A DNA stretch of 64,000 bases. Origin: Candidatus Moraniibacteriota bacterium (GTDB lineage Bacteria; Patescibacteriota; Minisyncoccia; Moranbacterales; GCA-2747515). Both the position numbers and the translations under genes were made by a program. The notes below the pieces were generated by a model. That model did no database searches and was not told the DNA's origin. It saw nothing but the letters and a program-made list of their open reading frames with translations. The stretch lies in contig CALNYG010000005.1 in assembly GCA_942490825.1 (NCBI GenBank), positions 70,240 through 134,239 of the forward strand, in the 5' to 3' direction. Below are positions 2,972 through 39,020 of the stretch, piece after piece; within the stretch, counting starts at the first letter, position 1, and each line of letters opens with the position of its first letter.

Positions 2972-3265
2972 CTAATATTTTACTTCTTTTTTACTTTTTA
3001 AAATATTCCTTAATTTTTTAGTTGCTTTTTTTACCCATCTTAATATACTAACGTTACTAACTTTCAGTATTCTTCCTATTGATCTAAATCCTAGTCCCTC
3101 TAAATACATTTCAATTATTTTTTTCTTAATTTCTTTAGGTTTTCCTCTTTTTGTAAATCTAGAAAAGTTATAGCTACATTCTTTACATAGATATCTTTGT
3201 TTTTTATTTACTTTACCATTTTTAACATAATTCTTATTATTGCAATGAGGGCATTTAATTTTCAT
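2972..3265 (-). CDS. IS1 InsA-like zinc-finger/HTH protein
   Basis: MKIKCPHCNNKNYVKNGKVNKKQRYLCKECSYNF is the CxxC...CxxC finger typical of IS1 InsA, followed by an HTH-like region (RSIGRILKVSNVSILRWVKK). Confidence 0.8.
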   Translation of the reverse strand: MKIKCPHCNNKNYVKNGKVNKKQRYLCKECSYNFSRFTKRGKPKEIKKKIIEMYLEGLGFRSIGRILKVSNVSILRWVKKATKKLRNILKSKKEVKY

Positions 3266-13042: not shown

Positions 13043-13464
13043 GGGGGTGTCAAGCTTCGACAGTTTGTCATTCGTCAATAAGCACGTCGGGCCATGATCA
13101 AGTATCCCGTAAAACTATTGATCAACTTTTTATAAGTGCAAACTTAGTAAAATCAGCAAAAGCAGTACTAGCGCAAGCTTTTACTCCAGCTTTTGCACCG
13201 TCTTTTGCTTAAATTTTAAGACAAAAGCCATCAACTAGCTAATATCTCATAGGCTAAATTGGTGTCATATCATGAGGATCGTCTAATTTTTTTGTTCCAA
13301 AATTTTAGACTAAACTTAGGAACTAGATATATAATGTTTTGTGAGTTTAGTAATTATATGTTGAAACTAGTTGATTTGCATCAACTTAAAAACTTTACTA
13401 AGCGTGTAGAAATTTGCCGGAGCGTACAAATTTGGACGTGGGTGCAATTCCCACCATCTCCACA
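13043..13464 (+). ncRNA. ssrA: tmRNA (SsrA)
   Basis: The 5' GGGGGTGTCAAGCTTCGACAG pairs with 3' CATCTCC (13455-13461). A T-arm-like GGACGTGGGTGCAATTCCCACC is present. The tag frame resumes at GCA (13138) after AUAAGU and encodes ANLVKSAKAVLAQAFTPAFAPSFA, then TAA (13210-13212). The 3' CCA is not fully encoded (ACAA). Confidence 0.87.
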
Positions 13465-13508
13465 AATTAGACTGAGTAGATTTTTAGATAATTAGATTTG
13501 TAGACATT

Positions 13509-20076: not shown

Positions 20077-23000
20077 TTATAATTCACTTACATAGTACAA
20101 ATTAAAAACACTATCCCTAACAATTAGATCATCACTATTTGTAGTATTCATAACTTCAAGTTTAAAATTATCTCCAGCATTCGCATGTATTGTCATTGGT
20201 AAAGTAAAAGTCTGGAAGTTACTTACTCCTGATGTTGTAGCTCCAATTCTATATCCAACTGGAACTCCCTGAGTAATGTTATAAAGTCTAAGATAAAAAT
20301 CTTCTCCATTTCCACCTGATATTGTGATGGAAACATTTCCTACGTAATGACCAGCATTAATAAATGTCATTACATCATTTGATAAGCCAAATCCATTTGC
20401 TTCTCCTGAAAATAAATCATTTGTTGAATTAGTTAATTGTTCCCAAGTATCAACTGTACAATTAATAGTTTCCAATTTATTTTGAAATCCTCCATAAATA
20501 TAATAAATATTACTTTGTTTAAGTATTCCTCCAGTAATAATTACATCTCCATTTTCATCAATAACCATCCTTTCAACTCCAGCTGTATCAAACCTAATCT
20601 TATCTTCATCTGCACTTTCTTCAACTTGAATTTTAGTATCACCATCTGTATCACTTAAAGATAAGGCTGTGCTTCCAGAAATATCATCCTGCCAAGTCAA
20701 AGCACCAGATCCATCAGTTTTCAAAACCTGATTAGCTGAACCATCAGCTGTTGGAAGAGTATAATTTTTAAAAGAAATTAATCCATCATTTTTTACACTA
20801 AATAAATTAGCATTAGCACTATCATCAACTTTTAACGCATGAGCTGTGTCATCAGCGGTTGCACCTTTAATGTGAGTTTTAGCAGTGATAGAATTTGTTC
20901 CAATTCCTAAACTATCCGTTACATCATCCCAAAAGAAATTTGTATTATCTTCTGTTACTACTGAGCCTGAAGTAAATAAGATTGAACCCGCAGTAAATGA
21001 ACCTAGAGTATCAGTTAATCCTAAGAAAGTAGAAGTACCACCAGCATTATCATCCACATATTTTTTAGTAGCAGGTTCGTAATCTGCGTCAGGAGTAAAG
21101 GCATCAGTATTATCTAATTCAAGCACATTAGTTAAATCAGCTTTCAAATTCAAAGCAGTCTGAACAGCAGAGCTCACAGGTTTATCAGCGTCACTGGTAT
21201 TATCTACGTTTCCTAATCCTACATCAGATGAATCAACAGAATGAGGGTTTGTTGTTGTATCAGCCACATGACTATCCAATTGAGTATGTGTATTACTTCC
21301 AATATCAGTTAAAGAAGTATGTGATTTTGTAGTAAGATCAGCAATATCTGAAGTTGTTTTATCAACCTGTGCCCAAGTATAATCATTTGTTTGAGCAGTT
21401 ATATCTCCAGTTCTAGTAAATACGCTGGTCACTGCACCACTACTAATATTATCATCAACGTATTTTTTATTTGCCACTTGATAATCAGTTGTCGGAGCTG
21501 AACTTGGAGTTATAGAAAAACTTGAAAATGTCTTAACTCCAGCAACTGTCTGGGGATTTGTTAAATCAACAAAGTTTTGAGTTATTGAACCAGTCCCACC
21601 ATTTGCAATGGGTAATATACCAGTAACATCATCGGTTAAATCAATTTGGTTAGCAGTTATTTCTTGTCCTGATAAAGTTAAATAATCTTTTCCCGCTAAA
21701 GTTACAGCGTCATGTAATTGTGTAATATCAGCTTTCAAATTCAAAGCAGTCTGAACAGCAGTGCTCACAGGTTTATCAGCATCACTGGTATTATCAACAT
21801 TTCCCAATCCAACATCAGATGAGTCTACTGAATGAGGGTTTGTTGTAATATTTGCAATATGAGTATCAATAGTAGCATGATCGTTTGTTCCAATATTTTG
21901 AATATTAGCATGATCAATGCTTCCCTCAGTAAAATGAATACTCGAATCTCCAGTGTGAGAAGTTAAATCACCAGAACTCGCACTATTATCACTTATTGTA
22001 AAATCTGGATAAGTTCCTCCTAAAGTTACATTTGTGCCACCAGTAAAAGCTACTGTTTTATCGTAAAGATTAGTTGAGCCTTCCGTTAAGTCATCAGTTG
22101 TTTTAGAAGAAAAATTACTATCAAAGTTAGTAGAAAAATCTGTAATATTCAATTTCAAATTCAAAGCAGTTTGAACAGCTGAACTCACAGGTTTATCAGC
22201 ATCGCTAGTATTATCCACATTTCCTAATCCTACGTCAGATGAATCTACTGAATGTGGATTAGTTGTTGTATCAGCCACATGACTGTCCAATTGAGTATGT
22301 GTATTACTTCCAATATCAGTTAAAGAAGTGTGTGATTTTGTAGTAAGATCAGCAATATCTGAAGTTGTTTTATCAATTTGTGCCCAAGTGTAATCATTTG
22401 TTTGAGCAGTAACTACTCCAGTTCTTCCAAAAACACTAGTTATTGCACCACCAGAACCCACTAATTCATCCAGTGTCTCTAAAGCTTTTTGAACTGTATC
22501 ATCTAAAACACTAAGATTAGTATCAAAATTTGTAGTATCAAGATCTATTGTAGTTCCAGCTTGATTATGACTAGCTGGAGTAAACTCAGTCGGAACATCA
22601 TTTAAATCATTGTAAGATCCAGAAAAAGTTGAATAACCTGCAGTAGAATGATCTCCCCAACCAAAAGCAGTATCCCAATTACTAGCATTAGCTATTGCAG
22701 TTAAATCAGCTTTCAAATTCAAAGCAGTTTGAACAGCTGAACTCACAGGTTTATCAGCGTCACTGGTATTATCTACGTTTCCTAATCCTACGTCAGATGA
22801 ATCTACTGAATGTGGATTAGTTGTTGTATCAGCAACATGACTGTCCAATTGAGTATGTGTATTACTTCCAATATCAGTTAAAGAAGTGTGTGATTTTGTA
22901 GTAAGATCAGCAATATCTGAAGTTGTTTTATCAATTTGTGCCCAAGTGTAATCATTTGTTTGAGCAGTAACTACTCCAGTTCTTCCAAAAACACTAGTTA

Positions 23001-24528
23001 TTGCACCACCAGAACCCACTAATTCATCCAGTGTCTCTAAAGCTTTTTGAACTGTATCATCTAAAACACTAAGATTAGTATCAAAATTTGTAGTATCAAG
23101 ATCTATTGTAGTTCCAGCTTGATTATGACTAGCTGGAGTAAACTCAGTCGGAACATCATTTAAATCATTGTAAGATCCAGAAAAAGTTGAATAACCTGCA
23201 GTAGAATGATCTCCCCAACCAAAAGCAGTATCCCAATTACTAGCATTAGCTATTGCAGTTAGATCAGCTTTCAAATCCAAAGCAGTCTGAACAGCAGAGC
23301 TCACAGGTTTATCAGCGTCACTGGTATTATCTACGTTTCCTAATCCTACATCAGATGAATCAACTGAATGAGGGTTTGTTGTTGTGTCAGCAATATGAGT
23401 ATCAATAGTAGCATGATCATTTGTTCCAATATTTGATAATGCAGTATGATCTGTTACGCCTGCAGAATTATTAGTCCAACTTAAATCTCCTGATCCATCT
23501 GTAGTCAAAATCTGTCCAGAAGCTCCATCAGCACTTGGTAAACTTAGCACATCTAAAAATCCCGTTAAATCACCATGCTGAGAATTTGTTAAGTGATAAT
23601 ATTCGTCTGTTGCTCCGCCTTGAATATTATTTAAATCATTATGATCTGCAGTTCCAGCAGTCAAAGCTGATATATCAACAGTATTTCCAGTGGAAATAGT
23701 AATCTCGCCTGTACTGGAATTAAATGAAAGTGTTTGTGAATCTGTGTTTGTATCAGTATCAACATCAGCAGAACAAACAAAAGCACTTCCATTCCACTGA
23801 AGTTTATCAGTCCCGCTACAAGTCGGAGCATTTATAGAAACTTCTCCACTAGCTTCATTAAGTCCATCGCCTGCTGTAATACTGCTCATTCCACTAATAT
23901 CACCACAAGCCCATTGATCATCACCACCATCCCAATATAAAAAATCCCCATCATTCTCACATTCTAATTCACCTGAGCTATTTACATTTACACTATTATT
24001 ATCTAAGTCTCCAAAAACTGCATGTGTCGGTTTACGGCAATCCCATTCTTTTTCTCCTTCATGCCATTGTAAAATTCTATCATCATCAACACATCGTATT
24101 TGACCATCTTTAACTTTCACTGTTGTAGAATCATAATTAAAAGAAACATCATCAGCATCTTCAATATAAATCGTTTCAGTTATAGTTTTAGTTTCGACTA
24201 CATTTTGATTTTGTTGAGCTGAAGAAGAATTATTAGATGTATTTGATTCAGAAGTCGAATCATTTTTCTCAGTAGCTATTTCTTTATCATTTGAATTTAA
24301 AGAATCACTACCTTCTTCATTCAAAGAATTAGAAACAGAACTAAGAGTATCAGCCTCATCAGATTCATTATAATCGTTATCTTCTTTTCGAAGATTAAAT
24401 ATTATAATACCTCCAATTAACAATACAATGATAATTGCTGAAATCCATTTGGTGCTTGGACTAATTATATTCTCTTGATAGCTTTCTGGAATTTGTTTAG
24501 AAATAGAAGCTTTGTGTTTTGTGGGCAT
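20077..24528 (-). CDS. giant membrane-anchored surface protein with phage-tail-fibre-type repeats
   Basis: 1483 aa. N-terminal TM helix (WISAIIIVLLIGGIIIF) and a Ser/Asn-rich linker. Three copies of C..(D/G)..L.W.G....W.C. Five copies of TNPHSVDSSDVGLGNVDNTSDADKPVS.AVQTAL.LK, a GLGNVDNTSD.DKP motif known from phage tail fibre repeats. The C-terminal segment of about 150 aa is beta-rich. Confidence 0.85.
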   Translation of the reverse strand: MPTKHKASISKQIPESYQENIISPSTKWISAIIIVLLIGGIIIFNLRKEDNDYNESDEADTLSSVSNSLNEEGSDSLNSNDKEIATEKNDSTSESNTSNNSSSAQQNQNVVETKTITETIYIEDADDVSFNYDSTTVKVKDGQIRCVDDDRILQWHEGEKEWDCRKPTHAVFGDLDNNSVNVNSSGELECENDGDFLYWDGGDDQWACGDISGMSSITAGDGLNEASGEVSINAPTCSGTDKLQWNGSAFVCSADVDTDTNTDSQTLSFNSSTGEITISTGNTVDISALTAGTADHNDLNNIQGGATDEYYHLTNSQHGDLTGFLDVLSLPSADGASGQILTTDGSGDLSWTNNSAGVTDHTALSNIGTNDHATIDTHIADTTTNPHSVDSSDVGLGNVDNTSDADKPVSSAVQTALDLKADLTAIANASNWDTAFGWGDHSTAGYSTFSGSYNDLNDVPTEFTPASHNQAGTTIDLDTTNFDTNLSVLDDTVQKALETLDELVGSGGAITSVFGRTGVVTAQTNDYTWAQIDKTTSDIADLTTKSHTSLTDIGSNTHTQLDSHVADTTTNPHSVDSSDVGLGNVDNTSDADKPVSSAVQTALNLKADLTAIANASNWDTAFGWGDHSTAGYSTFSGSYNDLNDVPTEFTPASHNQAGTTIDLDTTNFDTNLSVLDDTVQKALETLDELVGSGGAITSVFGRTGVVTAQTNDYTWAQIDKTTSDIADLTTKSHTSLTDIGSNTHTQLDSHVADTTTNPHSVDSSDVGLGNVDNTSDADKPVSSAVQTALNLKLNITDFSTNFDSNFSSKTTDDLTEGSTNLYDKTVAFTGGTNVTLGGTYPDFTISDNSASSGDLTSHTGDSSIHFTEGSIDHANIQNIGTNDHATIDTHIANITTNPHSVDSSDVGLGNVDNTSDADKPVSTAVQTALNLKADITQLHDAVTLAGKDYLTLSGQEITANQIDLTDDVTGILPIANGGTGSITQNFVDLTNPQTVAGVKTFSSFSITPSSAPTTDYQVANKKYVDDNISSGAVTSVFTRTGDITAQTNDYTWAQVDKTTSDIADLTTKSHTSLTDIGSNTHTQLDSHVADTTTNPHSVDSSDVGLGNVDNTSDADKPVSSAVQTALNLKADLTNVLELDNTDAFTPDADYEPATKKYVDDNAGGTSTFLGLTDTLGSFTAGSILFTSGSVVTEDNTNFFWDDVTDSLGIGTNSITAKTHIKGATADDTAHALKVDDSANANLFSVKNDGLISFKNYTLPTADGSANQVLKTDGSGALTWQDDISGSTALSLSDTDGDTKIQVEESADEDKIRFDTAGVERMVIDENGDVIITGGILKQSNIYYIYGGFQNKLETINCTVDTWEQLTNSTNDLFSGEANGFGLSNDVMTFINAGHYVGNVSITISGGNGEDFYLRLYNITQGVPVGYRIGATTSGVSNFQTFTLPMTIHANAGDNFKLEVMNTTNSDDLIVRDSVFNLYYVSEL
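22155..23270. repeat. 2 x 558-bp near-identical tandem duplication inside the giant gene
   Basis: 22155-22712 and 22713-23270 differ at only a handful of positions, and more than 400 bp are identical by eye. Each unit encodes 186 aa in frame. More diverged partial copies lie at about 21130-21420, 21715-21850 and 23271-23400. Confidence 0.9.
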
Positions 24529-29422: not shown

Positions 29423-29452
29423 AGGTTTATTTAGTTAATTATGATTATTTTA

Positions 29453-29866
29453 TTAAATTGTTTCTAAAAAATCTTCTATTGTTTTATACCTTTCTTCAAA
29501 AATCAAATATAATGTGTCTGGTTTTTCTGGTTCTCCGATAAGAATAAGTTTTTTACCCAATCCATATGCAATTCCAGCTTCAATATGTACTGAATTTCCA
29601 GCTGGCAATAATACAATAATTTTTTCAGCATTTTTCAATCCATCTAAATCTTCTTTAAAAAGTTTCTGAAAATGTTCATTGTTGTAAAAATCTTTTACAC
29701 TCTCAAGTACTTTCATTTGATCTTCTGGATTACCCTCAGGATTAGAAGAGTCTGCAGGATTATCAAAAAAATTGTAACAACTTTTACCTTTTTCTTCTAG
29801 TTTTTCAATAAGTTGATCTACATTTTCTTTATTTCTAAATTTCGCTAAAACTGTATATTCTGTCAT
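29453..29866 (-). CDS. nucleoside 2-deoxyribosyltransferase-like (Rossmann-like) protein
   Basis: 137 aa. KIIVLLPAGNSVHIEAGIAYGLGKKLILIG resembles the D/E-x-G-T-x-x-E-x-G-Y-A-x-G-K motif region of the NDT-like superfamily. The assignment is tentative. Confidence 0.4.
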   Translation of the reverse strand: MTEYTVLAKFRNKENVDQLIEKLEEKGKSCYNFFDNPADSSNPEGNPEDQMKVLESVKDFYNNEHFQKLFKEDLDGLKNAEKIIVLLPAGNSVHIEAGIAYGLGKKLILIGEPEKPDTLYLIFEERYKTIEDFLETI

Positions 29867-29870
29867 ACTT

Positions 29871-30494
29871 TTAAATTATTTTATTATTATTTTTAAATTC
29901 TAAATTTTCTTCATCAAATGACCATTTTAATGGATTCTCATAAATATATTGTTGTATCTTATTTAAAGATTTTTCATTTCTGATTATATGATCATAATAT
30001 CTGGGTTGCCATTTAAAATTGATTTGTTTTTGTGATTTGTTGATTTCAAATGAACATCTACCTTTAAACCAACGAATCATTGTTGCTAAATTTTCATGCA
30101 ACATTGGATTATGTTGTTTTGTAACACCGCCCATTTTTGTTGTACAAACGCGATTTATCGCGTTTCTTGTATTATCATCAACGGTATCATTGAAACGCGA
30201 TAAATCGGCGTTTCTACAATTTTTAATTCCAATAATTCCATGAATATGATTTGGCATAATTATAAATTCATCTAATTCTACATTATCAAAATGTTGTGGT
30301 ATTTCCAACCAAAATTTTTTTGCCTTTTTTCCAGTTTCATTTAAAGCTGTTTTTTCATTTTCGACTTTACCAAAAAAATATTGTTTGTCTTTTGTGCAGA
30401 CGGTTACGAAATAAAATCCATCATTGGAATAATCCCAATTTTGCAAACGATGTGATCCGATGCGGTATTTATTTTTGAATTTGGGTTGTTGCAT
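29871..30494 (-). CDS. REP-associated tyrosine transposase-like Y1 (HUH) transposase
   Basis: 207 aa. YRIGSHRLQNWDYSNDGFYFVTVCT is followed by the HUH motif MPNHIHGII and the C-terminal Tyr motif WQPRYYDHIIRN, matching the IS200-like/RAYT family. The ORF contains two copies of the REP palindrome AAACGCGAT..ATCGCGTTTC (30142-30169, 30192-30217). Confidence 0.82.
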   Translation of the reverse strand: MQQPKFKNKYRIGSHRLQNWDYSNDGFYFVTVCTKDKQYFFGKVENEKTALNETGKKAKKFWLEIPQHFDNVELDEFIIMPNHIHGIIGIKNCRNADLSRFNDTVDDNTRNAINRVCTTKMGGVTKQHNPMLHENLATMIRWFKGRCSFEINKSQKQINFKWQPRYYDHIIRNEKSLNKIQQYIYENPLKWSFDEENLEFKNNNKII

Positions 30495-30507
30495 AAATTA
30501 TTTATTT

Positions 30508-30532
30508 GAAACGCGATGAATCGCGTTTCTAC
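30508..30532 (-). repeat. REP hairpin flanking the RAYT gene
   Basis: The minus strand reads GTAGAAACGCGATTCATCGCGTTTC, 13 nt upstream of the RAYT ATG. The same palindrome occurs at 38967-38992 and twice inside the RAYT ORF. Confidence 0.75.
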
Positions 30533-30548
30533 GCATTGATTATTTTTT

Positions 30549-30745
30549 AAAAACAAAAAATCCCCAAACAAATAAATGTTTAAGGACGATTAAACGCGGT
30601 GCCACCTTAATTCGTTAAAAAATAACGCTCTCAATTTTAGTGATTTACGGACACTTACCGACAAGGTCTACTTAGCTAATGCTTTTCTGCTTGTATCCCC
30701 TGTTTTTCAACAGATCCAATGGTGATAGCCACTGTCAAAGGATTT
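30549..30745 (-). promoter_or_regulatory. T-box riboswitch leader (candidate Ile specifier)
   Basis: The minus strand at 30595-30612 reads AATTAAGGTGGCACCGCG, the T-box sequence. The antiterminator AAGG[UGGCACC]GCG...CGUCCUU is mutually exclusive with a terminator stem (30561-30570 pairing with 30577-30586) followed by U6. Upstream lie AGAAA and AGUAG Stem-I-like motifs, GCGUUA (F-box-like) and a candidate specifier AUC followed by A (30641-30644). Confidence 0.8.
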
Positions 30746-30873
30746 TATAATTGTACTCTATTTATACTATTTTTTTGGGTTAAACGCAAATTTTTGTAAC
30801 TTACAAACAAAATTAATAAACTCAAAATTTTATGAAATATGTTAAATAAACTTAAAAATGCCTAAATTTATAA

Positions 30874-31371
30874 TTAAGTAAATATTTTATTAAAAAATAC
30901 AAAAAGTGACATAAATATGGGGAGCAATAAAAATGTAATGAAAACTACTATTTTCGAAAGAATGTACATTATTACTATTGGTGACCTACCTAAAAAAATA
31001 GCTGTTTTTTCTTCAAATATTTTTTTACTTTTTGTTTTTGTATACAATCCCCAAGCAATCAATATACTAATTAGAATTAGATAGCCAAAAATAAATTCAA
31101 ATAACATAAATGAACAATCCCTACCAGATGCTTCACATATATTTATCAATGACATAGGAAACGACAAAAAAGTAAAGATAGCTCCAAAAATATAATGAGC
31201 ATATCTAGACATATTGCTTTTATCAAAAGTAATTCTCAATAAAAATATAATATAAAACCAACCTAAAATAATAACTAAAAAGGAGTTACTTTTCGCAATA
31301 AAAAATACTGTAAGAAACCATAGTATGAAATAGAGTATATACCTTATCCACTTCTTGAAATCACTAGACAT
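30874..31371 (-). CDS. hypothetical polytopic membrane protein
   Basis: 165 aa with about five hydrophobic helices. No family recognised. Confidence 0.5.
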   Translation of the reverse strand: MSSDFKKWIRYILYFILWFLTVFFIAKSNSFLVIILGWFYIIFLLRITFDKSNMSRYAHYIFGAIFTFLSFPMSLINICEASGRDCSFMLFEFIFGYLILISILIAWGLYTKTKSKKIFEEKTAIFLGRSPIVIMYILSKIVVFITFLLLPIFMSLFVFFNKIFT

Positions 31372-31475: not shown

Positions 31476-32435
31476 TTACTCCTTAATCTCCTGCACCTTA
31501 ACATCAATAACCCCCGCACCAATACTAGCAATCTTTTTAAAAGCCACTTTATCCAAATCAATAATATGACCAGTATAATCAGCTGGACCATAATCATTTA
31601 CAATAACAATAACACTTTTTCCACTCCCTTGATTAGTAACTTTCAAATAAGTTCCTTTCGGATAATCCCTCGAAGCACAAGCTAAAGTTCCCGTGTAAGC
31701 ATACCAAGTAGCACTCCCCTTATCCGCCTTACCCAATTTCATTCTAGTCCCCTGAACAATCACCTTATCAACAGGCTCTTTTATTACATTTTCACTAACC
31801 TTTTCCCTACCAACTTCCTCGCCATTATGATAAGAAATTTCATAAACAATCTCTTTTTCACCATATTCACCCTCAGTTTTAGTAAATTTCTTTAAATAAC
31901 TCGTTTCTGGATCGTCTTTCTTAACAGTTTCAAAATCAATTTTTTTAGTTTCCTTTTCTTCTTTAATTTCTACTTTTACTATTTCCACTTCCAAATCTTT
32001 TTTAACAATAGTTTCTTTATTAGGAGTAATTAAATCATCACTGTCTAATTCAATATTTGCTTCAGTAATAACGTTTTCCAAAGAATCGCCATAAGTTTTC
32101 ACTTCTTGTTCGTCATCAGCTATTTTTATTTTTACGGTTTTTTCTCGATTTATCCTGATTACATCATTAGAAAAAATTTGATCTTCTCGTTTAGGGAAAA
32201 TTCGATCTTGTTCAGAAATATCTTCATCATAAAATTTTACCGCCTCAGAAATTGTTTTAGCTGGCACATTCTCTAATTCTATAATATTCCCATCATCTAC
32301 AACTGTTATATTAACAGGCTGATCAATAGGCTCAAAATCGTGATCATTTCCTGACAAGGCTAAAGTTGGAACGGCTACTAAAGCCATTCCCCAAGCGATC
32401 TTTTTATTTCTTTTTTGACGTATTTTTTTGTGCAT
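31476..32435 (-). CDS. secreted DUF348/G5/RlpA-like (DPBB) cell-wall protein
   Basis: 319 aa. Signal anchor, a G5-like segment (ETVKKDDPE...GEKEIVYEISYHNGEEVGREKVSENVIKEPVDKVIVQGT), and a C-terminal GSATWYAY...VIVIVNDYGP....IDLDKVAFKKI double-psi beta-barrel motif. Confidence 0.8.
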   Translation of the reverse strand: MHKKIRQKRNKKIAWGMALVAVPTLALSGNDHDFEPIDQPVNITVVDDGNIIELENVPAKTISEAVKFYDEDISEQDRIFPKREDQIFSNDVIRINREKTVKIKIADDEQEVKTYGDSLENVITEANIELDSDDLITPNKETIVKKDLEVEIVKVEIKEEKETKKIDFETVKKDDPETSYLKKFTKTEGEYGEKEIVYEISYHNGEEVGREKVSENVIKEPVDKVIVQGTRMKLGKADKGSATWYAYTGTLACASRDYPKGTYLKVTNQGSGKSVIVIVNDYGPADYTGHIIDLDKVAFKKIASIGAGVIDVKVQEIKE

Positions 32436-38739: not shown

Positions 38740-39020
38740 GTGCTCGCCGCACGGGCTTTTGGAGTTCAAAGTTTTTAACCTCCATAAAAATTTATGATAG
38801 CCTTCCAGACATGTCATGCCGGAAGACAGAATTTATTCAAGAGCGTAGCGATTGATTTAAATTCGTCTATCCGGTATCTAGGAAACTATCAGAAAATAAC
38901 TAAATTTTAAAGTTTATAACTAATCTTAAAGCTTCCTAGATTCCGGATAAATTATTTTCTATCTATAAAACGCGATAAATCGACGTTTCTACAAAAGAAA
39001 ATATATTTTCCGGAGTGACA
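38740..39020. repeat. 17-mer plus GTCATGCCGG-type MITE carrying the REP palindrome
   Basis: GTGCTCGCCGCACGGGC lies at 38740-38756. The MITE spans 38813-39020 (ends GTCATGCCGGAAG and CCGGAGTGAC) and has AAAACGCGATAAATCGACGTTTCTAC inserted at 38967-38992. Confidence 0.75.

Follow-up and report, generated by a model that had tools for sequence, protein, structure and literature searches.

How does a transposase gene come to lie between a tRNA-sensing leader and the essential synthetase gene downstream, and is it then transcribed under the control of that leader? This question is raised by the isoleucyl-tRNA synthetase gene (ileS) of a Candidatus Moraniibacteriota bacterium, in a 64,000-nt stretch of contig CALNYG010000005.1 (assembly GCA_942490825.1, positions 70,240 to 134,239 of the forward strand) that is called the window below and to which all positions refer unless a relative is named. 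On the minus strand of the window a T-box leader is followed by a repetitive extragenic palindromic (REP) hairpin, a gene for a REP-associated tyrosine transposase (RAYT), a 4-nt gap, an open reading frame (ORF) of 137 aa, a 30-nt gap and ileS, with the gene order and gaps that an original prediction, made by a model from the sequence alone, had described (Table 1). The T-box motif is consequently 1184 nt from the ileS ATG, as compared with 69-122 nt in most relatives. We consider it probable, with real room for doubt, that an ancestral isoleucine-specific T-box with attenuation control received first a REP-RAYT unit and then the 137-aa gene, and that all of these are now co-transcribed as one operon with ileS.

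Related ileS loci are given handles beginning with L. A total of 80 genome loci were scanned, and further loci (e.g. L084, L087 and L101) were taken from other searches or assemblies. L001 (JAGLWU010000026, a metagenome-assembled genome (MAG) of Candidatus Moraniibacteriota) is the nearest relative derived from a genome, while L101 and L087 are Logan sequences (SRR15144437, 973 nt, and SRR32197422, 1037 nt, respectively). The IleS protein of the window is 86% identical to that of L001 and 58-65% identical to those of many other Moraniibacteriota and Parcubacteria MAGs. The sequence around the locus is AT-rich, with a GC fraction of 0.20-0.43.

The leader belongs to a family of ileS T-boxes

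When 30400-30900 (501 nt) was scanned permissively, the Rfam T-box model RF00230 matched the minus strand at 30775-30579 with 49.8 bits and an E-value of 5e-10, below the gathering score of the model. Posterior probability in this alignment is high over Stem II, Stem IIA/B, Stem III and the T-box, which make up the 3' two-thirds of the model, and poor in Stem I. The same model also matches upstream of ileS in L001, L007, L010, L017 and L084 (48-64 bits, E 2e-7 to 2e-11). The T-box sequence anticipated on the minus strand at 30612-30595 does read AATTAAGGTGGCACCGCG. A strict form of this motif, GGTGGNACC[GA]CG, has exactly one site in the window and one site each, on the same strand upstream of ileS, in 21 of the 80 loci; a relaxed variant adds L016, L021, L062 and possibly L035, and at least 25 related ileS loci have a same-strand upstream T-box motif.

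Covariation was scored on an alignment of 16 leaders for 15 pairs taken from the Stem II base, Stem IIA and both antiterminator helices. In this set 98.8% of cells form standard pairs, a value that was reached in none of 500 shuffles, and sliding the pair partners drops pairing to 24-49%. All four pairs of the Stem II base exhibit double changes while staying 100% paired, and the antiterminator helices are 98-100% paired. The columns GAA, AGUAGA and CGG..CCGUAA vary little or not at all, and the 31 columns that are invariant in the family alignment are all retained by the T-box of the window. Because MAFFT misaligns Stem I between two subgroups of leaders, covariation of Stem I was taken from anchored hairpins. 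The comparative evidence argues that this leader is a genuine tRNA-Ile-sensing T-box of ileS.

The ileS T-box family as collected spans L003-L034, L061, L067, L084, L095, L101 and the window, with a Stem III that varies from 5 bp to more than 100 nt. A metagenome scan with the Stem I pattern gave nine matches, among which only L095 is a real T-box that abuts ileS, like that of L017, the rest being chance matches.

An ultrashort Stem I presents the specifier AUC in its terminal loop

The 22 related leaders that were examined, each with ileS downstream, all contain in Stem I a hairpin of 4-6 bp with strongly covarying stems (for example GGAAGG/CCUUCC, UGAGG/CCUCG, GGGG/CCCC, UAAUAG/CUAUUA and CGAUAG/CUAUUG) and a 5-8-nt loop that ends in AUCA, and L084 has the same. 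This constancy of the loop on changing stems identifies AUC in the Stem I terminal loop as the specifier. The isoleucine assignment of the original prediction is therefore retained, and its location is not: the AUC followed by A had been sought at 30644-30641, whereas the real one is at 30726-30723. The site at 30644-30641 was rejected as it overlaps CACU (30642-30639), the 3' strand of a putative IIA/B pseudoknot, read from sequence alone, in which it can pair with AGUG of the Stem IIA loop. Two other elements also change their names. The AGAAA and AGUAG motifs that had been regarded as Stem-I-like are the two halves of the Stem II S-turn (30689-30684 and 30673-30666), and the GCGUUA that had been taken as F-box-like forms the 5' side of Stem III (30627-30623); CCGUAA corresponds to the F-box.

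The expected antiterminator is borne out by its pairing and fold (-4.3 kcal/mol), with AAGG (30608-30605) opposite CCUU (30585-30582), GCG (30597-30595) opposite CGU (30588-30586) and UGGCACC (30604-30598) as the bulge. Its 3' strand is also used by an intrinsic terminator of -12.7 kcal/mol, making the two structures mutually exclusive as had been proposed; the terminator stem measures 11 bp here as compared with 10 bp in the earlier description, and relatives have the same terminator arrangement. Upstream of the leader lies a candidate promoter whose layout is kept in L001 as TTGCCA-17-TATAAA, although its -35 hexamer falls short of the 4-of-6 criterion of the promoter scan.

A REP-RAYT unit and a second gene have entered the spacer between leader and ileS

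Two blocks of homology to L001 delimit the insertion. Specifically, BLASTN aligns L001 5488-5765 with window positions 30777-30549, which contain the promoter, leader and terminator, at 71% identity, and L001 5970-6123 with positions 29449-29300, which contain the 19 nt upstream of ileS and the beginning of ileS, at 90% identity. Between these blocks there are 1099 nt in the window, and in L001 there is a 204-nt non-coding inverted-repeat element resembling a MITE (a transposable element of the miniature inverted-repeat kind). The breakpoints at 30549 and 29449 thus bracket the REP hairpin, the RAYT gene and the 137-aa gene. Together with the short distance from T-box to ileS in relatives, they bear out the earlier proposal that a REP/RAYT unit has wedged itself between a riboswitch and its essential gene.

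No RAYT or 137-aa homolog was found within 6 kb of ileS in the 80 genome loci. The arrangement is shared with two Logan assemblies. L101 contains, in order, a T-box with a UGGU bulge, a terminator, the same REP hairpin as the window, a gene for RAYT with 67% aa identity, 20 nt and ileS, with no 137-aa gene, and L087 is 92% identical in nucleotide sequence to window positions 30165-29127 and has the order RAYT, 137-aa gene, ileS. The first position of the L087 assembly falls within the REP hairpin, which is what repeats of this hairpin in that genome would cause by interrupting assembly. The REP hairpin and RAYT would accordingly have entered a short spacer of roughly 20-40 nt between the terminator and the ileS start, and the 137-aa gene would have entered the same spacer later, in the lineage of the window and L087.

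The ratio of nonsynonymous to synonymous substitution (dN/dS, omega) was calculated by the Nei-Gojobori method. Relative to L087, omega is 0.10 for the RAYT C-terminus, 0.05 for the 137-aa gene and 0.01 for ileS. Relative to L101, omega is 0.10 for the RAYT N-terminus (dS 0.74) and 0.09 for its C-terminus (dS 0.62), with a dS of 0.57 for ileS. A synonymous divergence of RAYT similar to that of ileS, in combination with purifying selection, fits a vertically inherited, domesticated RAYT rather than a fresh insertion. Over the first 138 nt of ileS the window, L087, L101 and L001 are roughly equidistant. These comparisons indicate that the arrangement of T-box, REP, RAYT and ileS is old, vertically inherited and under purifying selection, and that a domesticated transposase has been stably lodged, over a dS of about 0.6, in an essential operon under riboswitch control.

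Co-oriented inserts without terminators suggest read-through into ileS

The spacer between the T-box terminator and ileS is occupied in other lineages as well (Table 1). All protein-coding inserts in relatives (L004, L011, L026, L019, L067, L021 and L084) are co-oriented with ileS, and given at least eight independent insertions a binomial estimate yields p ~0.004 if orientation were random. The original prediction had seen no terminator-like hairpin between the RAYT start and ileS, and our scan found no second terminator-like site on the minus strand all the way from 30560 to the end of ileS. Likewise, nine relatives with inserts have no convincing terminator between T-box and ileS besides the T-box's own; two further matches of the terminator scan, in L004 and L067, are minimal 5-bp stems, one in the antiterminator and one in an ORF. 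Co-orientation of the inserts and lack of terminators are the chief indirect grounds for thinking that read-through from the leader is important and takes in the passengers, and the short gaps of 4 and 30 nt point the same way. Thus, the REP hairpin, RAYT, the 137-aa gene and ileS are most likely carried on one read-through transcript from the T-box promoter.

In the mechanism that we propose, the 11-bp terminator would form by default. Uncharged tRNA-Ile would pair with the AUC specifier and the UGGC bulge and would stabilize the weaker antiterminator, upon which polymerase would continue past the REP hairpin and across RAYT and the 137-aa gene into ileS. Expression of RAYT would in this way become coupled to tRNA-Ile charging as a by-product. 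Transcription of the transposase under T-box control had been presented as an alternative to the wedge; we infer instead that the two are compatible and that the former is the likeliest consequence of the latter. This would be a naturally occurring example of a mobile-element enzyme whose expression is probably linked to starvation for an amino acid. More generally, the spacer between leader and ileS appears to be a recurrent, tolerated landing site in compact genomes of the candidate phyla radiation (CPR), where co-oriented, terminator-less inserts would amount to a readable rule for passenger survival beside essential genes. A bolder idea, which we offer tentatively and doubt more than we believe, is that the spacer is, in Moraniibacteriota, a privileged niche for possibly promoterless genes, among them the domesticated RAYT and the PD-(D/E)XK, 23S-IVS-type, NUDIX and NDT-like genes, that ride an essential, starvation-induced transcript, with REP/RAYT activity on single-stranded DNA switched on when tRNA-Ile is uncharged and with an ultrashort terminating T-box as the switch.

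Observations against this scheme and alternative explanations

Several observations weigh against an ileS operon governed by this T-box. One is the RF00230 score, which at 49.8 bits is below the gathering score of 93; a whole-window Rfam scan at gathering thresholds reported no T-box, and only a transfer-messenger RNA (tmRNA) and two tRNAs. The shortfall is attributable to the missing long Stem I, and the equivalent 48-64-bit matches in five relatives indicate that a low score belongs to the whole family and not to the window copy. As the members scanned all score below the Rfam gathering threshold, routine annotation would be predicted to miss a phylum-wide family of CPR ileS T-boxes. A second is the bulge, where UGGC predicts a tRNA with G73, as opposed to the A73 that is usual for tRNA-Ile and the UGGU of close relatives; if tRNA-Ile of this organism has A73, antitermination would be weakened. 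A third is that the RAYT homolog in L082 faces away from its upstream neighbour and therefore requires a promoter of its own. The last concerns promoters downstream of the leader. The promoter scan gave 25 promoter-like hexamers against 27.9 expected, which is the chance frequency in AT-rich sequence, and one promoter-like site, TAGAAA-17-CATAAT at 29466-29438, is located just upstream of ileS with its CATAAT part inside the 19-nt block that is conserved with L001. Hence ileS may also have its own promoter near 29466-29438 that gives basal expression.

The strongest alternative extends this last point and holds that ileS is mainly transcribed from a promoter inside the insert or the 30-nt spacer, leaving the T-box to govern RAYT, and perhaps the 137-aa gene, or to add read-through during starvation. 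We regard this as unlikely, although it has to be taken seriously. Besides the TAGAAA-17-CATAAT site itself, the window and L001 are 100% identical over AATAATCATAATTAACTAA as compared with 71% over the leader as a whole, and a bypass would be of advantage to an essential gene that lies 1.1 kb past a terminator whose default is off. However, promoter-like sites are no commoner than in shuffled sequence, and the CATAAT hexamer has changed in L101 (TCATTAAT) and reads TATAAT in L087. The T-box moreover keeps all of its invariant columns, and the strict co-orientation and absence of terminators in at least eight independent inserts are hard to explain if read-through is irrelevant.

A second alternative follows from the bulge. 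The UGGC (30604-30601) that the original prediction had flagged as an oddity is indeed present, and tRNA-Ile normally carries A73. The T-box could then be a decaying relic in which a U-to-C change uncoupled the leader from tRNA-Ile and left behind a leaky terminator. The window is the sole leader with C at this near-invariant position among the 16 aligned, and helix A2 begins with a G-U pair in place of A-U or G-C; both observations favour decay. Against decay, all other conserved elements are intact. Beyond the aligned set, C in the bulge is found in the window and L015 alone, with U in L001, L017, L101 and others. L015 carries UGGC in an ordinary T-box that abuts ileS, an indication that UGGC is tolerated, and L101 combines the RAYT wedge with UGGU; the bulge change thus appears to be independent of the insertion. 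We consider the relic explanation improbable. Scans of the window and of the 80 ileS loci for a tRNA-Ile gene gave none.

Less probable still, and largely refuted, is the idea that RAYT is a recent, active IS200-like insertion that landed here by chance and will soon be lost. A GTAG hairpin at the 5' end and a 10-nt direct repeat, AAAATAATCA, that brackets the insert (30546-30537 and 29451-29442) would suit such an event. The repeat was rejected as a target-site duplication, as four copies exist in the window versus 1.9 expected, 16 of 100 shuffles do as well and it is not conserved in L087 or L101. A recent event is also at odds with the same arrangement in L087 and L101, with a RAYT dS relative to L101 like that of ileS, with a dN/dS of about 0.1, and with the single copy and missing 3' hairpin of the element in the window.

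Finally, sensing of tRNA-Asn, for which the RF00230 alignment of Stem I places GAAAAACA (GAAA-AAC-A) at the canonical GAA-N-codon-A specifier site to give AAC, and which would fit UGGC given that tRNA-Asn has G73, is considered refuted on comparative evidence, in that this part of the alignment has low posterior probability, its GAAA is the tetraloop of a side hairpin found only in the subgroup of the window and L001, the AUCA loop is the element kept in 22 of 22 leaders and the downstream synthetase gene is ileS in every relative.

An ultrashort Stem I is combined with an intrinsic terminator

The attenuation scheme set out above brings together traits of two T-box classes. Ultrashort ileS T-boxes have been described in M. 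smegmatis and M. tuberculosis (Sherwood et al., 2015, cited through the summaries in PMC7583486 and bioRxiv 10.1101/2023.02.28.530422), with the specifier in the Stem I terminal loop and with ileS regulated by all members (bioRxiv 10.1101/2023.02.28.530422). The Moraniibacteriota leaders are like these actinobacterial ones in having a short Stem I whose terminal loop displays AUC and which has no distal platform for the tRNA elbow, and also in their Stem II S-turn, IIA/B pseudoknot, variable and often long Stem III, UGGN bulge and ileS target. They differ in phylum, as members of the CPR, and in their expression platform, which is an intrinsic terminator with a U-tract instead of a Shine-Dalgarno sequestrator. 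In addition, Stem I of the subgroup formed by the window, L001, L017 and L015 is a three-way junction with an extra hairpin, and the ileS target of the window is 1.1 kb downstream. In every relative, the hairpin after the T-box runs directly into a tract of 5-7 U, and the start codon follows 18-45 nt past this tract in relatives; in the window the distance from the tract is 65 nt to that of RAYT and 1.1 kb to that of ileS. A hairpin with a U-tract and the start codon further on marks the platform as a transcription terminator and not a Shine-Dalgarno sequestrator. The sequestrator-type translational control of the ultrashort class was found neither in the window leader nor in its relatives.

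With the transcriptional T-boxes of Firmicutes (B. subtilis tyrS and glyQS; RF00230) these leaders share the T-box sequence, the mutually exclusive antiterminator and terminator, a specifier followed by a purine and a default-off attenuation logic, in contrast to which they lack a long Stem I, an AG bulge and a distal-loop platform of interdigitated T-loop motifs (IDTM). Transcriptional T-boxes generally need a long Stem I with an elbow-binding IDTM, an ultrashort Stem I being a feature of translational T-boxes (PMC7583486, section 6.2). An ultrashort terminating T-box, if real, conflicts with the view that transcriptional T-boxes need a long Stem I platform for fast tRNA capture, and CPR T-boxes would offer a direct test of whether an elbow-binding platform is truly required for kinetic (transcriptional) control. 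The combination of ultrashort Stem I and intrinsic terminator appears to characterize the Moraniibacteriota ileS leaders and is not categorically new. In the literature searched we found no paper joining T-boxes with Patescibacteria, Parcubacteria or CPR, which is absence of evidence and not proof of novelty.

Some T-box operons place other genes before the synthetase gene, B. subtilis cysE-cysS being an example. The window resembles these in its order of leader, another gene and synthetase gene, and the known cases are co-transcribed by read-through. Their extra genes share an amino-acid pathway with the synthetase, whereas the passengers in the window, a domesticated transposase and a nucleoside-hydrolase-like gene, have no evident link to isoleucine. 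The stable residence of RAYT in a T-box-ileS unit and the recurrent use of the spacer are new variants of known things, none of them categorically new.

The RAYT gene and its REP sequences

The RAYT ORF that had been called from sequence was confirmed by matches to Pfam Y1_Tnp (E 2e-7; 31.5 bits, cut-off 23) and to NCBIfam REP_Tyr_transpos (E 5e-19; 68.5 bits against a cut-off of 80), and it was the sole ORF of the RAYT family in the window, in agreement with the original prediction of a single Y1 transposase. There are 1916 homologs, many of them named RayT, and an alignment of 20 sequences shows no variation at H83, H85 and Y183; the exact protein sequence of the window RAYT is not on record. 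The predicted REP hairpin at 30532-30508 folds with -13 kcal/mol. REP copies are of the form GTAGAAACGCGAT-N3-4-ATCGCGTTTC. Two REP hairpins are also present in frame within the RAYT ORF. Among homologs from CPR, Flavobacterium and cyanobacteria, a hypervariable insert between the HUH strand and the next helix consists of the REP palindrome in varying frames, read as CRDAINRVS, VETRFIAS and the like.

TnpA_REP subclass 2.4 (Quentin et al., 2018; Bertels group 4) is described by the motifs NH[IFV]H, WQ and YIxNNP and by REPs within the gene (PMC6006769). In-frame REPs being a published hallmark of this subclass, embedded REPs are already known, and the window RAYT is best assigned to subclass 2.4, a known kind. 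It shares with the subclass the NHIH and WQ motifs, a YIxxNP tyrosine motif, a length of about 200 aa, an adjoining GTAG REP, a low number of copies and indications that it has been inherited vertically under purifying selection. It differs in a tyrosine motif of YIYENP, where E replaces the first N of YIxNNP, in having a REP on the 5' side only with the next gene abutting the 3' side after 4 nt, in the few REPs nearby (one orphan in 64 kb) and in its position in the leader-to-gene spacer of an aminoacyl-tRNA synthetase operon.

RAYT homologs also occur in unrelated contexts in L081, which has REP doublets on both sides, and in L082. L100 (1-807) carries a RAYT homolog of 79% nucleotide identity to that of the window, whose N-terminal part has been removed by a MITE-like inverted-repeat insertion; this decayed copy adjoins an unrelated secreted-protein gene. 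The internal REP of L101 (~172-200) is a different palindrome, GTAGAAACGCAGCAATGCTGCGTTTCTAC, which is also present 3' of RAYT in L081.

The 137-aa gene

Pfam matches of the 137-aa protein are weak (E 0.002), with 18.8 bits for PF05014 and 19.1 bits for PF15891 falling below the gathering scores of 28.8 and 30, respectively. A profile search of PDB sequences gave the CMP N-glycosidases MilB and BcmB at an E-value of 0.012 through the motif PAgnsvHIEaGiAyGlGK, in which E96 aligns with HVEIG of MilB/BcmB, and the catalytic-glutamate motif (D/H)xE-G-x-A-x-G-x-GK is present. An AlphaFold model (AF2, pLDDT 88) retrieved by Foldseek the folds of nucleoside 2-deoxyribosyltransferase (NDT), BcmB, MilB and DNPH1, with a best E-value of 5e-5 and TM scores of 0.53-0.69; the E-values for NDT, BcmB and MilB range from 5e-5 to 8e-4. 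The model and motif suggest, at the level of a structural prediction, that the protein belongs to the NDT-type Rossmann-like fold superfamily.

The gene has 714 homologs; the best 120 listed are 64-81% identical, plus one of 94%, come from Moraniibacteriota and other Patescibacteria, and are nearly all 137-138 aa long. In other Moraniibacteriota, homologs occupy the short spacer between rpoB and rpoC in L083 (1595-2011), L085 (3705-4121) and L086 (3701-4117), and in L084 one lies between T-box and ileS without a RAYT, with gaps of 16 and 22 nt. Elsewhere they are found by NUDIX and ASCH genes (L088) and after a TP_methylase gene (L089). The distribution suggests that the 137-aa gene is a small conserved wanderer that repeatedly ends up inside tight essential operons. 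PADLOC gave no defence-system match for RAYT or the 137-aa gene.

Table 1. Positions of the leader elements, genes and repeats in the window, and of inserts in the spacer between T-box terminator and ileS in relatives.
Feature	Positions	Strand	Basis or remark
Candidate promoter, TTGCGT (30789-30784), 17-nt spacer, TATAAA (30766-30761)	30761-30789	-	Sequence reading
Ile-specific T-box leader, Stem I to terminator U-tract	30549-30745	-	Rfam RF00230, homologous leaders, covariation
Ultrashort Stem I, three-way junction, base AUCCU/GGGAU	30695-30743	-	Fold -14.5 kcal/mol, z -2.3
Stem I main hairpin, CAGUGG-CUAUCA-CCAUUG	30734-30717	-
Specifier AUC (30726-30724) and conserved purine A (30723)	30723-30726	-	In terminal loop CUAUCA
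Stem I side hairpin, CUGUU-GAAA-AACAG	30713-30700	-
Stem II, base CAAG/CUUG	30693-30662	-	RF00230 alignment, covariation
Stem II S-turn halves, CAGAAA and AAGUAGAC	30689-30684 and 30673-30666	-
Stem IIA, CGG-UAAGUGU-CCG	30660-30648	-
F-box equivalent, CCGUAA	30650-30645	-
Stem III, CGUUA/UAACG	30627-30613	-
Antiterminator, AAGG[UGGCACC]GCG-UUUAAU-CGUCCUU	30608-30582	-	Fold -4.3 kcal/mol
Intrinsic terminator, 11 bp (30587-30560), then U-tract UUUUUGUUUUU	30549-30587	-	Fold -12.7 kcal/mol, z -5.3
GTAG-type REP hairpin, 13 nt upstream of RAYT ATG	30508-30532	-	Fold -13 kcal/mol
RAYT (TnpA_REP), 207 aa; HUH H83-I-H85, WQ, Y183 in YIYENP	29871-30494	-	Pfam, NCBIfam
Two in-frame REP hairpins within RAYT, cores 30213-30193 and 30165-30146	30143-30217	-	Encode CRNADLSRF and TRNAINRVC
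137-aa gene, predicted NDT / CMP N-glycosidase fold	29453-29866	-	Motif PAGNSVHIEAGIAYGLGK, E96 invariant
ileS, 1161 aa	25937-29422	-	Ancestral target of the T-box
Orphan intergenic REP, GTAGAAACGTCGATTTATCGCGTTT	38968-38992	-	Single other copy in the window
PDDEXK_3 gene	L004 5570-5953		Spacer insert, flanked by CTAC...GTAG inverted repeats
23S_rRNA_IVP genes	L011 5326-5943; L026 5535-5912		Spacer inserts
EamA transporter gene	L019 5076-5939		Spacer insert
Trp-repressor-like (TrpR-like) gene	L067 5199-5726		Spacer insert
NUDIX-like ORF	L021 998-1519		Spacer insert
Non-coding MITE-like inverted repeats	L001 5766-5969; L018 ~2985-3225		Spacer inserts

Other features of the locus

IleS of the window contains an insertion of about 165 aa in its CP1/editing region (residues ~253-420; window ~28666-28163, minus strand) that is missing from L001, to which the protein is otherwise 86% identical, and from L017 and L084. 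This insertion weakly resembles alpha/beta-hydrolases (Abhydrolase_5, E 2e-4; Ser_hydrolase, E 2e-3), has an HSLGS elbow and coincides with a dip in GC to 0.25. On the other side of the leader, a hydrophobic 165-aa ORF that matched no family (30874-31371, minus strand) is located between the T-box promoter and a G5/DPBB gene (31476-32435), and the GC fraction there is 0.20-0.26. The G5/DPBB homolog of L001 ends ~25 nt before the promoter, which points to this ORF as a second lineage-specific insertion adjoining the leader. A 1483-aa ORF at 20077-24528 (minus strand) contains several near-identical internal repeats of ~110 aa (…TNPHSVDSSDVGLGNVDNTSDADKPVSSAVQTALNLKADL…) and may code for a surface or fibre-like protein. 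The tmRNA gene of the window is at 13043-13465 on the plus strand (119 bits; tag peptide ANLVKSAKAVLAQAFTPAFAPSFA), and in L007 a tmRNA gene is also located less than 5 kb from ileS.

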